Positions 55,017-64,000 of a stretch of 64,000 nucleotides of DNA are shown one piece after another; position 1 is the first letter of the stretch; every line of letters begins with the position of its first letter. A model generated the notes under the pieces. The model was given only the letters and a program-made list of their open reading frames with translations. It had not been told where the DNA came from and searched no databases. Position numbers and translations under genes: made by a program. This DNA is from Clostridiales bacterium Firm_18 (GTDB taxonomy: Bacteria; Bacillota; Clostridia; Monoglobales; Firm-18): assembly GCA_001604215.1 (NCBI GenBank), contig LVAX01000092.1:72985-136984 (forward strand), given 5' to 3'.

Positions 55017-55093
55017 GTTTCCGTAGCTCAGTAGGATAGAGCGACCGCCTCCTAAGCGGTAGGTCGGAGGTTCGAATCCTCTCGGGAACGCCA
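55017..55093 (+). tRNA. tRNA-Arg (anticodon CCT)
   Basis: Cloverleaf folded by hand: acceptor GTTTCCG/CGGGAAC, D arm GCTC/GAGC, anticodon stem ACCGC/GCGGT with loop CTCCTAA, T arm GGAGG-TTCGAAT-CCTCT, and an encoded CCA. Confidence 0.9.
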
Positions 55094-55123
55094 AAAGACG
55101 CCTTTTTTAAGACAACTATAAAT

Positions 55124-55161
55124 GATGGATGAGGGAGCAGGTTTTGCATTTCTCATCCATC
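55124..55161 (-). terminator. Hairpin terminator downstream of arr
   Basis: 10-bp stem GATGGATGAG / CTCATCCATC, 13 nt after the arr stop. Confidence 0.5.
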
Positions 55162-55173
55162 AAGGGCGGATAC

Positions 55174-55587
55174 TTATTCGTTAATGGCTTCAATGCCTTG
55201 TCTTTTTAATTCTTCAAGCTTATCCCGCATTTGTTTTAGTATTTCCGGGGGATGTCCTTTCCAATCCAATACTTCACCTACAACACGCAGGGGATATTTA
55301 GTACGGTAGGAACGCGTTGGGTTACCGGGGAATTTCTTATCCGTAAGATTAGGATCATTTTCAAATTCGCCTGTCGGCTCCACAATGTAGATACGACCAA
55401 CTCCATCTCCAACCGCAAGTTCTGCGCCCCATATTGCCGCATCCATAGTTGCTGTCAAATAGACAAAGTTGGCTTTTTTTCGCTCACCATAATTAGAATT
55501 ATAACCGACTTCTATTAAATCACCTGTTTTCAAGTCAGCTTTTGTACCATGGTAAAATGGTCCGCTGTCTAAGACTTCATTGCACAT
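55174..55587 (-). CDS. arr: NAD(+)--rifampin ADP-ribosyltransferase
   Basis: GPFYHGTKADL, WGAELA, IYIVEPTGEFENDPNLTDKKFPGNPTRSYRT and DWKGHPPE match the Arr family along the whole 137 aa. Confidence 0.9.
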   Translation of the reverse strand: MCNEVLDSGPFYHGTKADLKTGDLIEVGYNSNYGERKKANFVYLTATMDAAIWGAELAVGDGVGRIYIVEPTGEFENDPNLTDKKFPGNPTRSYRTKYPLRVVGEVLDWKGHPPEILKQMRDKLEELKRQGIEAINE

Positions 55588-55606
55588 GCTAATACTCCTT
55601 TTATTA

Positions 55607-60532: not shown

Positions 60533-60592
60533 GAGACAACAGAACCGTCCCATTGTCTTACATTAAAGACAATAGAACCGTCCCCTTGTCTT
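60533..60592 (+). repeat. Two 19-bp direct repeats (period 33) embedded in three alternative hairpins
   Basis: AGAACCGTCCCATTGTCTT (60541-60559) and AGAACCGTCCCCTTGTCTT (60574-60592). The arms AGACAA/TTGTCT occur four times, including the palindrome ATTGTCTT-ACATTA-AAGACAAT (60552-60573). Confidence 0.85.
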
Positions 60593-60604
60593 CTTATGAG
60601 CCAT
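60563..60604 (-). CDS. 13-codon mini-ORF (MAHKKTRGRFYCL) with a strong SD, a possible leader peptide
   Basis: AAGGGGGA lies 9 nt before the ATG. The ORF runs through the first hairpin and stops in the central palindrome. Translated by hand. Confidence 0.25.
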   Translation of the reverse strand: MAHKKTRGRFYCL

Positions 60605-60663
60605 TTTACACCATCCCCCTTTTCAATAAATGAATAATGCTTATACCTTCTTTGTTCTATGAC

Positions 60664-61587
60664 TTATCCCAAATATATATTCTCATTATGCCATTCTAAA
60701 TAGTGTGGACCTGGAAGTTGTTCTTTTTTCCCCGGCAAAATTATCAACTTACTTCCATGGTGTGCATAGTACTCTTTACCATTTCCAAAGTCTTCCTTGA
60801 TGCGGCGGCTTACCTCAACATTGAATTCTTTATCAATTGTTATGTACCCCCGATCAAACAAGGTATGAAAATCTCTTCTAAGTAGTAGACCATTATTAAT
60901 TTCATGAGGTCCATCAAGACTAAATGGTTTAATATGGGCTGCCTCTAATACGGGTAATGTTTTTTCACCAGTTATTGCACATCTTCTATGGTAAGCATCA
61001 GTAATAAGGATCTTGAAAGCACCCTGCCCTATTCTTGGTTTTATCTTCTGTTCTTTACCATATCGGCTATTTACGGAGTCTTCTCTCAGTAGATTTTTAT
61101 TGAATCTCTGGCTATATAACACTTCCTGTATTTGTTGATATAACAGCTTACCATAATGTTCAGAAGTATCGTACGTCTTACCTTGTACGATGTTTTTGCT
61201 CCAATTGTCCGGAACAGTGATCCAGTCATCTTCTTCTAAATAAAAAGGCATCGATAATATAATACAGCCAATCTGAGGATCCGGATCAGATATACGATTT
61301 GTCTTTCTATATTTATATATCCTGTCATGTAACTCGAATAGACTCCTAGCTCCATTAGCTAATCCAAAAGCTTCCCATGCTAATGAAGATGGTAATATTG
61401 AGAACTTCAGAAAAAAGCCACCGCCTACAATATAATCTTGTGGACTATGTAATTTAAATAAAAACAAATCACCTTCGTCAAGAGCTTTGAAATTTGTTTT
61501 TCCTCCAGGTTTCCAAAAGTTCACTTCGTCACAATTTGCCTGCTTTAAAGTTTTAAACCAGTCATAGTCCGTGATCCCAACATACAT
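60664..61587 (-). CDS. HNH endonuclease (putative restriction endonuclease, COG3440-like) with N-terminal PUA-like domain
   Basis: YVGITDYDWF...DEVNFWKPGG N-domain. C-terminal HRRCAITGEKTLPVLEAAHIKPF...NGLLLRRDFHTLFDRGYI HNH motif. Confidence 0.7.
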   Translation of the reverse strand: MYVGITDYDWFKTLKQANCDEVNFWKPGGKTNFKALDEGDLFLFKLHSPQDYIVGGGFFLKFSILPSSLAWEAFGLANGARSLFELHDRIYKYRKTNRISDPDPQIGCIILSMPFYLEEDDWITVPDNWSKNIVQGKTYDTSEHYGKLLYQQIQEVLYSQRFNKNLLREDSVNSRYGKEQKIKPRIGQGAFKILITDAYHRRCAITGEKTLPVLEAAHIKPFSLDGPHEINNGLLLRRDFHTLFDRGYITIDKEFNVEVSRRIKEDFGNGKEYYAHHGSKLIILPGKKEQLPGPHYLEWHNENIYLG

Positions 61588-61644
61588 CTTCAATATCTTC
61601 ACCAGCTTTCCTTTATACACCTATAACGCTCGTCGTTAATGTTT

Positions 61645-64000
61645 CTACGCCGCCGGATAAGTGGTATATACAAACTCATAAATCTTTCGGCGATATTCAT
61701 TTAATAATCTATCATCGTAACTATCAGGTAGTTCACTCCATAGGGTATCTCTGATAAGTATATCGACTGCTGCCTGAGTTTCTTCCTTTTCTGTCCAATG
61801 ATCTAATTCACTGATTTTATCCTTGATTCGTTCCAACAATACCTTGGCAAGCTTTTTAACCTTTTTAATCTCAGCCGGAGTAAGTGAGTCCTTTAAAAGC
61901 AAATCATACATAGCCAATTCTTCGTCATTGTTAAATCCTTCCCGTACGTATCTTTTTTCCTCATCATCCAGATCATTTACGAAGTTAGTTAAGTCAATAA
62001 ATGTTTTCTCTATGGCAGCTTTATCCTGTTCAGCATTGTATTCCTCAATAATTTTCTGATATTGTTCATAATAGTTAATACGCGATGGGTTGCGCTTCAT
62101 CATATTATCCAGCCTGTCATTGATAAGCTCCTGTAAATCTTTCATAAGAAGATTCTTATTCTTAACACGTGCAAATTCCTGCTGCAAGCGTTCAAAGTCA
62201 ATATGGCTAATATCAAAGCGGCGACTTTCAGCTAAGTATCCACCACCATCTTCGTTTACATGATCTGGTAGCTTAACAACTTTGATATATTCACTAACTA
62301 TATTGTGCAGCTGAATCATTAAATCTGTATTATCCGAATGCTTCCTTTTTTCCTGCATCTGGTCATAAACTGCACTGATAGCATTTTTATAAGCTCGGTA
62401 CTGATCTGTGATTTCTTGTTTTTCGACATACTTAAACAGTTTGAATAATTCCCTAACCATAACTTCAAAACGTTTCTTCACTTCCTCTGAGACGCACATG
62501 GCATTGGCTCCCTCTTGAACCAAGGCCAACTTGTCAAAGTCAACTGCCTGAACGAGATCTGACAAGCTAAAACCATGCTGTTTCATGTATTCGATGATAT
62601 CATTGGTTAATGCAATGATACGAGCAATCAATTCTGCTTTATCAGGAGCAGGATCAGATCCATCAGTACCGCCTTTAGTTTTTGTATAATCAGCCAAAGC
62701 CTTCCTCAGTGCTTTAACAACACCAACATAATCAACAATTAGGCCATTGCTTTTTCCCTCATAAACACGATTCGCTCGTGCTATGGTTTGCATTAAGGTA
62801 TGTGCCTTTAATGGCTTATCCAAATAGATTGTAGAAAGGCATTTCACATCAAATCCTGTCAGCCACATAGCGCAAACAAATACGATTCGAAATGGATTAT
62901 CAGGATCCTTAAATTCCTTGTCCATTTCTCGTTTTTCCATTTTGCTGCGATGGGGTTTAATATCCAGTCCCCATTTTTCAAAAGTAGCTACTTCATTTTG
63001 TTCCTGACTGATAATAACCGCCATTTCTGTGTTTTTCATCCACTCCAGCCTACGGCTGATTTCCATGTATTCCTGTTGTGTGACTCCAGATAGTGAAGAT
63101 TCAATTTCTTTTATTTTTAGCTCCCAATATTTCTGAGCTAAATTAAACATTCGAACTGCAGTTACTTTATTGATACAAACAAACATGGTTTTACCCGTTG
63201 TCCACAACTCAGAGTAATGCTCTACAAAATCCTTTGCAATGGTATCCAAACGTTTTTCACTGGTAAGGACATGTATGTCCTTAGCTAGTTCCTGTTCTAG
63301 TTTAGCCTGCTGATTGACATCCAGATCAGCCTGTTCTATTGCATCTAATAGTTCATCATTAATTTCAGGATTATCTATCTCCAGTAGATCGGCTCTATTC
63401 TCATAATATAGAGGAACTGTCGCTCCATCATCTACAGCACGCTTGAAATCATAAATGGAAACATAGCCGCCAAATGTTCTTTCGGTAATATTGTCGTAAG
63501 CGAACAGCGGTGTACCTGTAAATCCTATACGGGAAGCAGTAGGAAGCAATGTACACATATTATCAGCAAATATACCATTTTGTGTACGATGTGCTTCATC
63601 CGATAAGATTATAATGTCGTGGTCAGGAATAATTGGTGGTTCATCTGGTTTATTAAACTTATGTATCAATGTAAAAATAAAGCTTGGATTTCCTTTTAAC
63701 TTCTGAATTAAATCTTCACCGCTAGTAGCAATAAACTGTTTGGCCTTCGTAGTACCAAGCAAACCACAAGCTTCAAAAGTATCACTAATTTGCTTATTCA
63801 GCTCTTCACGATCTGTCAAAATAACAAATGTTGGGGAGCCTGCAAATTTTCGCCGAATCTTTTGTGCAAGAAATACCATGGAATAACTTTTCCCGCTACC
63901 CTGAGTATGCCAGAAAACACCCAGTTTACCATTGTTCAGTTTTCGATTCTTATAAGATTCAACAGCTTCGTTAACACCAAGGAACTGATGGTTTCTTGCC
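61645..64000 (-). CDS. hsdR: Type I restriction endonuclease subunit R (5' end beyond the window)
   Basis: Walker A GSGKS (hand-translated upstream of the tracked ORF), the DEAH box ILSDEAHRTQ, GFTGTP and QTIARANR. The frame is open to the window edge. Confidence 0.9.
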   Translation of the reverse strand, partial: ARNHQFLGVNEAVESYKNRKLNNGKLGVFWHTQGSGKSYSMVFLAQKIRRKFAGSPTFVILTDREELNKQISDTFEACGLLGTTKAKQFIATSGEDLIQKLKGNPSFIFTLIHKFNKPDEPPIIPDHDIIILSDEAHRTQNGIFADNMCTLLPTASRIGFTGTPLFAYDNITERTFGGYVSIYDFKRAVDDGATVPLYYENRADLLEIDNPEINDELLDAIEQADLDVNQQAKLEQELAKDIHVLTSEKRLDTIAKDFVEHYSELWTTGKTMFVCINKVTAVRMFNLAQKYWELKIKEIESSLSGVTQQEYMEISRRLEWMKNTEMAVIISQEQNEVATFEKWGLDIKPHRSKMEKREMDKEFKDPDNPFRIVFVCAMWLTGFDVKCLSTIYLDKPLKAHTLMQTIARANRVYEGKSNGLIVDYVGVVKALRKALADYTKTKGGTDGSDPAPDKAELIARIIALTNDIIEYMKQHGFSLSDLVQAVDFDKLALVQEGANAMCVSEEVKKRFEVMVRELFKLFKYVEKQEITDQYRAYKNAISAVYDQMQEKRKHSDNTDLMIQLHNIVSEYIKVVKLPDHVNEDGGGYLAESRRFDISHIDFERLQQEFARVKNKNLLMKDLQELINDRLDNMMKRNPSRINYYEQYQKIIEEYNAEQDKAAIEKTFIDLTNFVNDLDDEEKRYVREGFNNDEELAMYDLLLKDSLTPAEIKKVKKLAKVLLERIKDKISELDHWTEKEETQAAVDILIRDTLWSELPDSYDDRLLNEYRRKIYEFVYTTYPAA

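Follow-up and report, generated by a model that had tools for sequence, protein, structure and literature searches.

The 64,000-nt stretch of DNA analysed here (the window), from the genome of Clostridiales bacterium Firm_18, raises a specific question: was the AT-rich run of minus-strand accessory genes that follows its tRNA-Arg(CCT) gene acquired as one island by integration into that tRNA? An initial annotation had read the arrangement in this way. Comparison with contigs from other samples leads us to conclude that the region is probably a mosaic accessory region that arose from at least two separate events, and not one tRNA-integrated island. The strain comparison places its mobile boundary at a transposon-like repeat 5.5 kb from the tRNA, between a proximal block that carries a homologue of the rifampin-resistance gene arr and a distal module that carries an HNH nuclease gene and a type I restriction–modification (R-M) system.

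The window corresponds to G000:C92:72985-136984, where G000 is the assembly under study, C-numbers denote its contigs and L-numbers denote the contigs or loci that we read, mostly from other samples. The assembly is a metagenome-assembled genome (MAG) of 2.11 Mb in 109 contigs, 73.7% complete and with 41.4% G+C. The contig extends 5.3 kb beyond the window (read as L001, where the window coordinate equals the L001 coordinate + 54015), so that 14.2 kb can be read 3′ of the tRNA up to the contig end at window-equivalent position 69277. tRNA genes were called by ARAGORN, and gene families were assigned using Pfam, NCBIfam/TIGR models with curated cut-offs, PADLOC and PDB (Table 1). For the strain comparison, exact-protein look-ups of SigG, Arr, orf136 and the HNH nuclease were made in contigs from other samples; relatives were compared across 40 genomes at family and order level, with none from the same genus among those searched.

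The boundary between the two parts of the region was located by the near-identical contigs. Identity to the window ends at 60594–60597 in L020, L032, L296, L297, L298 and L300, and at least five types of continuation were found past this point: the R-M module (the window and L283); a PGA_cap gene with pieces of insertion sequences (ISs); a 121-aa open reading frame (ORF) with a GDSL lipase, a fucosidase and a Y1 transposase; a helix-turn-helix (HTH) gene with a 320-aa protein; and a 1110-aa CHB_HEX protein. A sixth type, L295, breaks one repeat copy earlier, at 60563. Searching the rest of the assembly for the alternative segments gave no match apart from the IS pieces. On the proximal side, 55094–60597 is kept at 99.6–100% identity beside the tRNA in all near-identical contigs that reach it (L022, discussed below, aside), and sigG, the tRNA and arr are contiguous at approximately 100% identity in Logan contigs of four separate runs (L024–L028). 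The exact SigG protein is present on 23 contigs read from other samples; the exact orf136 protein is likewise on 23 contigs read, with at least 5 different distal neighbours. The comparison with island-free strains that the initial annotation had suggested gives a mixed result: the distal R-M/HNH module varies between strains, and the genes from arr to orf136 are fixed to the tRNA.

The distal segment was also found outside this setting. The exact HNH protein occurs in unrelated contexts, and hsdR–HNH DNA recurs at 96.8–99.9% identity in contigs whose flanking genes this genome lacks. There the flanks comprise a 361-aa gene, IS21, IS66, PglZ/BrxL (BREX), or a 339-aa protein and a Fic protein that replace DUF3644, and the identity always ends at window position 60597. 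Because the strain alleles and the outside copies of the R-M module all break there, 60595–60597 is a true joint of two independently evolving segments. These comparisons show that the predicted HNH and type I R-M module moves horizontally and differs from strain to strain; it is the sole part of the region for which they do so.

The joint itself coincides with the end of a dispersed repeat. The sequence up to 60594 is AAGACAATAGAACCGTCCCCTTGTCTTC, which holds a 7-bp hairpin motif (AAGACAA...TTGTCTT), and the repeat motif AAGACAAtAGAACCGTCCCCtTGTCTT has 21 matches in the assembly, where it belongs to 295–430-bp units with inverted ends that often lie at contig ends. The three copies in the window are solo ends in the same orientation, and the window holds no transposase. 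The units have the make-up of miniature elements, with dispersed copies, hairpin ends and variable flanks, as seen in C36 and C12, where the flanks differ after ...TTGTCTT. In L032 and L293, genes for a Y1_Tnp (IS200-type) transposase lie next to copies of the repeat; the assembly under study contains no autonomous copy. With IS200/IS605 elements and their miniature derivatives (Y1/HUH transposases, subterminal hairpins) the repeat shares the 7-bp hairpin, the 21 dispersed copies and the inverted ends, whereas the window has solo ends and no transposase; the likeness lies in hairpin and dispersal and makes this a candidate family.

Some further observations concern the repeat. The GGGACGGTT/AACCGTCCCC motifs at 60343–60597, which lie after orf136 and before the HNH gene, are ends of the 295–430-bp family, copies of which lie in C12, C34, C36, C52 and C86 and often break contigs, and the units carry a short ORF ending in HTH-like ...GLSIRQISRLTGIGKGIVERIS. 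The two long non-coding stretches that the initial annotation had pointed out, 59408–59903 and 60315–60663, do exist and contain remnants of dispersed repeats. Within the first of them, 59487–59546 is 90–91% identical to C60 and C27, and 59735–59795 is IS-end-like, being 80–85% identical to sequences that terminate contigs C33, C71 and C3.

These data allow us to propose how the region may have been put together. The intact, scar-free tRNA-Arg(CCT) would be an empty landing site for elements that cut its anticodon loop; 55094–60597 would be a stable proximal block of arr and regulator genes; and the sequence from 60598 to the contig end would be a mobile HNH and type I R-M/PDC-S19 module, joined at the outer end of the repeat and ending in another IS. 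Cargo beside the repeat end might be swapped through recombination between dispersed copies or through transposase action, and such exchange would produce a variable slot with different cargo in each strain. A bolder version, in which the hairpin repeat end is an active site-specific cargo-exchange point (Y1/HUH-catalysed or integron-like) beside the empty tRNA landing site, seems to us doubtful; if it were true, foreign DNA would have two different ways into a single short piece of the chromosome.

The arrangement proposed by the initial annotation is that everything from 55094 onward is one island, inserted by a tyrosine integrase at the tRNA 3′ end, with the integrase and the displaced fragment lying past the contig end. 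tRNA-gene islands of the Islander type (PMC4383910) have a tyrosine integrase, and a regenerated tRNA and a displaced tRNA fragment mark their ends. The locus shares with them accessory DNA of lower G+C directly after a tRNA gene, which stands intact at one boundary, and the use of this tRNA as an attachment site in another contig, L021; it departs from them in showing neither integrase nor displaced fragment, in a variable boundary 5.5 kb from the tRNA and in contents with separate histories. The tRNA 3′ end quoted by the initial annotation matches that of the tRNA-Arg(CCT) gene. The direct repeat of this 3′ end and the integrase that were expected downstream are both missing from the 14.2 kb: a search of the whole assembly with the tRNA 3′ end (15–40 nt, 1–4 mismatches) and with the 5′ half returned the gene itself only, and local alignment of the tRNA halves with the 14.2 kb downstream gave a best score of 9, against a median of 10 for shuffled queries. 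Between sigG and the contig end, a scan for T-arms picked out nothing but the real tRNA and a single chance match at 63095. No integrase gene was found on this contig, the 14.2 kb included, and the 12 PF00589 matches and the one PF07508 match are all on other contigs. Neither the assembly nor the 14.2 kb yielded a displaced tRNA fragment; the contig ends in an IS, past which the end of any island would lie, and the MAG is 73.7% complete. The strains break at 60595–60597 and not at the tRNA, with arr to orf136 fixed.

The same tRNA gene is occupied elsewhere. L021 (GCA_030154545.1) is 99.9% identical to the window from upstream through sigG to tRNA position 40 (...CCTCCTAAG); past this position (L021:10885-11957) the contig has 54 nt of spacer, then a second complete tRNA-Arg(CCT) of different sequence, and then a minus-strand tyrosine integrase (PF00589, above cut-off). 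The cut falls in the anticodon loop of the tRNA, of which a 40-nt 5′ half is left. L038 carries the arr block and a full hybrid tRNA, the 3′ half of which is that of the window and the 5′ half a foreign allele (L047 type); the hybrid tRNA lies behind an 85-nt spacer and an older 40-nt 5′ fragment (L038:2254-2460) and behind a gene for an extracytoplasmic function (ECF) sigma factor. In a pattern scan of public contigs, from metagenomes and genomes, we looked for the tRNA 5′ half with any base except C after it (loci L044–L243); of the 206 matches, 204 were 5′ fragments with a spacer behind them. Most fragments have a complete tRNA-Arg(CCT) within 30–340 nt downstream. The fragment and the 5′ half of the downstream tRNA differ in 128 of 136 comparable loci, commonly at 5–8 of 40 positions, and a related integrase lies directly downstream in 38 of the 83 loci whose sequence extends far enough. 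The fragment loci come from Lachnospiraceae, Oscillospiraceae and other Clostridia, and many of the spacers start with a GTTAYAAC palindrome.

tRNA-Arg(CCT) is a genuine integration hot spot, which stands empty in the window. The ‘split and replace’ design seen at L021 and the fragment loci is that of the tRNA-dependent lysogeny of mycobacteriophages and actinobacteriophages (Guerrero-Bustamante and Hatfull 2024, PMC10865867). L021 and the approximately 200 Clostridia loci share with it a severed host tRNA that is not restored and, just inside the element, a complete tRNA with the same anticodon, often beside a tyrosine integrase; the window differs in having a single intact tRNA and no fragment, and the elements at L021 and the Clostridia loci are known from sequence, with no phage nature implied. 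The L021 and L038 events, later ones whose breaks fall in the anticodon loop, show the tRNA as a target; the arr block stays on the tRNA 3′ half, as flank and not as cargo. For the single-island arrangement we thus have a tRNA at the boundary followed by accessory genes all on the minus strand and of lower G+C, proof in a near-identical contig that the tRNA is a target, and a far end that lies out of view. Weighed against these are the lack of an integrase beside the tRNA, its usual place in such islands (PMC4383910), the lack of an attachment (att) repeat in the assembly or the 14.2 kb, the polymorphic boundary at 60597 instead of at the tRNA, the independent history of the distal module in other contexts, and the absence here of the 5′ half that integrase elements at this tRNA leave behind on crossing over in the anticodon loop. 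A single tRNA-integrated island is possible only if its integrase and att repeat are both located past the terminal IS, and the joint at 60597 would still be unexplained; we regard it as quite improbable. What survives of the tRNA-targeted acquisition first suggested is the accessory content, the lower G+C, the mobility of the distal module and the genuine target status of the tRNA in L021; a single island that starts at the tRNA 3′ end is not supported, given the missing integrase and att repeat, the boundary at 60597 and the lack of an anticodon-loop scar.

The mosaic reading, in which the proximal block and the distal module have separate origins, also had to be weighed against an older event at the tRNA. 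The proximal block, perhaps together with the tRNA, might be an old ‘split and replace’ island from which the integrase and the fragments of the host tRNA have since disappeared, with the R-M module arriving later. In L038 the tRNA–arr DNA is preceded by the 40-nt 5′ fragment and the 85-nt spacer, a layout typical of the element family; the tRNA there, however, combines a foreign 5′ half with the window's 3′ half, which fits a later upstream insertion and not mobility of the arr block. L022 diverges upstream of the tRNA, at 54913, but has 1.09× coverage and many frame errors, and the proximal block is fixed in all other near-identical contigs. arr is patchy among the relatives, with a homologue in just 2 of 40 at 54–62% identity, and the DUF4825 and BlaI genes are low in G+C (5th–7th percentile). 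The window itself has neither a 5′ fragment between sigG and the tRNA (54914–55016, where neither half was found) nor a 3′ half downstream. On balance we consider such an origin unlikely.

The relatives give little purchase here. sigE–sigG is 76–77% identical at the nucleotide level in the four closest genera examined, where the genes 3′ of sigG differ in each and no tRNA occurs within at least 10 kb; an empty site is undefinable from the family- and order-level relatives. Five points count against a mosaic with an unoccupied tRNA. Gene order after sigG is not shared with family-level relatives, and the arr block may be ancestral or may be an old island. If L022, which departs from the window at 54913, right after sigG, and has no tRNA, is real in spite of its low coverage, tRNA-Arg(CCT) itself sits on variable DNA. 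A distal integrase or tRNA fragment is possible beyond the contig end, given the terminal IS and the completeness of the MAG. The near-identical contigs are metagenome-derived, and ‘same species’ here means 99.6–100% identity over 5–14 kb. Finally, the mechanism suggested for exchange at the repeat end is read from the structure of the junctions only.

We next consider composition and strand, on which the initial annotation had relied. Its statement that all genes after the tRNA are on the minus strand is borne out, every family-supported ORF to the contig end being minus, and its two counts of G+C per 60 nt are exact (16/60 at 57541–57600 and 36/60 at 10441–10500). The description of the upstream DNA as almost all plus-strand applies to about 22–55 kb and not to 6–21 kb, which is mostly minus. 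The drop in composition is real but modest and not unique to the stretch: windowed G+C is 0.379 for 55094–64000 and 0.370 to the contig end, compared with 0.443 for 1–55016 and 0.420 for the 9 kb just upstream, and 9-kb windows of the genome have a mean of 0.420 (s.d. 0.027), which places the region at the 8th percentile. G+C is below the genome median in 12 of 13 island genes, gene values span the 2nd–58th percentile, and G+C at third codon positions (GC3) of all island genes lies at the 3rd–27th percentile. The codon-usage difference anticipated with it did not appear: likelihood failed to separate the island genes from the genome, and their synonymous choice is not atypical. An approximately 24-kb all-plus block at C92:54-78 kb, with G+C of 0.34–0.38, ends in window positions 1–5000 (0.359) and is equally AT-rich; because the same contig has this other block, low G+C is not unique to the DNA from 55094 onward.

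It might be held that nothing was acquired at all, and that the strand switch and the lower G+C reflect local variation or a region like a replication terminus. The other minus-strand blocks and the other low-G+C block of the contig, a GC skew that follows the coding strand and the typical codon choice of the island genes are compatible with local variation, whereas the R-M/HNH module is found at 97–99.9% identity in unrelated contexts and is replaced by other cargo in near-identical strains, so that this view is already contradicted for the distal module; we judge it extremely improbable. A replication-terminus reading of the strand switch was rejected separately: GC skew tracks the coding strand, the contig carries other such blocks, and a search for a dif-like site found none.

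Table 1. Features of the region from sigG to the contig end, in window coordinates
Feature	Position	Strand	Evidence
sigG	54132..54902	+	NF006071 SigG 487.9 bits (cut-off 372); closes the spoIIGA–sigE–sigG cluster; conserved left flank
sigG terminator hairpin and tRNA promoter TTGACA-17-TAAAAT	54914..55016	+	Read directly from sequence
tRNA-Arg(CCT)	55017-55093	+	ARAGORN; the one tRNA in the window, sole CCT copy in the assembly
arr, NAD(+)-rifampin ADP-ribosyltransferase	55174..55587	-	NF033144 equivalog 2.2e-67, 224.9 bits (cut-off 130); PF12120 4e-51
XRE-type HTH regulator with desulfoferrodoxin-like C-terminal part	55607..56188	-	PF01381 1e-15; TIGR00320 weak, 1.2e-8, below cut-off
400-aa orphan membrane protein	56273..57475	-	No family match; N terminus paralogous to the DUF4825 gene
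471-aa DUF4825 membrane protein	57514..58929	-	PF16107 1.6e-23
BlaI/CopY-family repressor	59039..59407	-	PF03965 1.5e-30; TIGR02698 and BlaI models below cut-offs
Non-coding stretch with dispersed-repeat remnants	59408..59903		Repeat matches to other contigs of the assembly
orf136, 136-aa orphan	59904..60314	-	No family match; last gene of the strain-conserved block
Solo ends of the dispersed hairpin repeat; joint at 60595-60597	60315..60597	+	Motif copies at 60343, 60542 and 60575
HNH_2 nuclease, resembles modification-dependent (type IV) restriction enzymes	60664..61620	-	PF13391 7e-14; PADLOC HNH 1.6e-20; PDB 6yex 4e-8
hsdR, 1058 aa	61645 to ~64821 (window ends at 64000)	-	TIGR00348 318.8 bits (cut-off 284.55); PADLOC REase_I 9e-158
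DUF3644 gene	Beyond window, between hsdS and hsdR	-	PADLOC PDC-S19 1e-148; role candidate only
hsdS, 376 aa	Beyond window	-	PADLOC Specificity_I 4e-135
hsdM, 657 aa	Beyond window	-	PADLOC MTase_I E=0
XRE HTH	Beyond window, past hsdM	-	Pfam

The left flank of the region identifies the host as a member of a spore-forming Clostridia lineage, since SpoIIGA and SigE, encoded upstream, exceed their curated cut-offs as SigG does. Across the tRNA, arr adjoins tRNA-Arg(CCT) with a terminator between them. The predicted Arr protein matches NF033144 in full length above the equivalog cut-off, the model covering residues 9–137. A second ORF with an Arr domain was seen at G000:C45:3143-3502, inside a 274-aa open frame and with 55% identity over the domain. 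In L020:2796-3605 (ERZ3460576) the arr gene is in two pieces, of 94 aa and 43 aa, and the HTH regulator is reduced to 125 aa, which could be gene decay or an assembly error at 7× coverage. Farther along the block, a 128-nt stretch of the gene for the 400-aa orphan shares 76% identity with the beginning of the DUF4825 gene. As a whole, 55094–60597 is a stable part of the chromosome of the species, accessory in kind and somewhat low in G+C, and it may be an old, decayed acquisition.

The distal module holds a complete type I R-M system, with hsdM, hsdS and hsdR all present and intact. It is preceded in the window by the HNH nuclease gene, the product of which also matches NF045808 (1.2e-22, below cut-off). 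Like other defence islands with type I R-M, the module has the order hsdM–hsdS–extra gene–hsdR, a neighbouring HNH nuclease and an exchangeable slot for the extra gene; unlike them, it has a hairpin repeat end and an IS at its borders in place of recombinase sites, and it is known from sequence alone. Type I R-M systems with an extra gene between hsdS and hsdR are known, for example with prrC. In the slot between hsdS and hsdR, L284, L285 and L287 carry 339-aa and Fic-domain proteins where the contig under study has DUF3644/PDC-S19 (L001:10787-11770); their R-M modules are otherwise 95–97% identical, and the target-recognition parts of hsdS differ as well. When compared by megablast with collections of plasmids and phages, the 14.2 kb matched nothing. 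The contig terminates in a repeat common to the end of C94, an IS end. This IS end truncates a gene that lies upstream of the XRE HTH gene (L001:15123-15262), leaving just its final approximately 25 codons; 77 nt at G000:C54:7902-7978 are 97% identical to the remnant and apparently lie within a longer reading frame.

Taken together, a tRNA gene followed by AT-rich accessory genes on the opposite strand is, as a pattern alone, no proof of tRNA-targeted integration. The region is an ordinary accessory and defence region, an ordinary kind of bacterial genome feature that will not surprise a specialist. Within the lineage itself, which is uncultured, a putative rifampin-resistance homologue, arr, is fixed. 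For the wider group, the locus points to a portable module with a predicted role in defence, made up of a type I R-M system, PDC-S19 and an HNH nuclease, that circulates among gut-type Clostridia at 97–99.9% identity.

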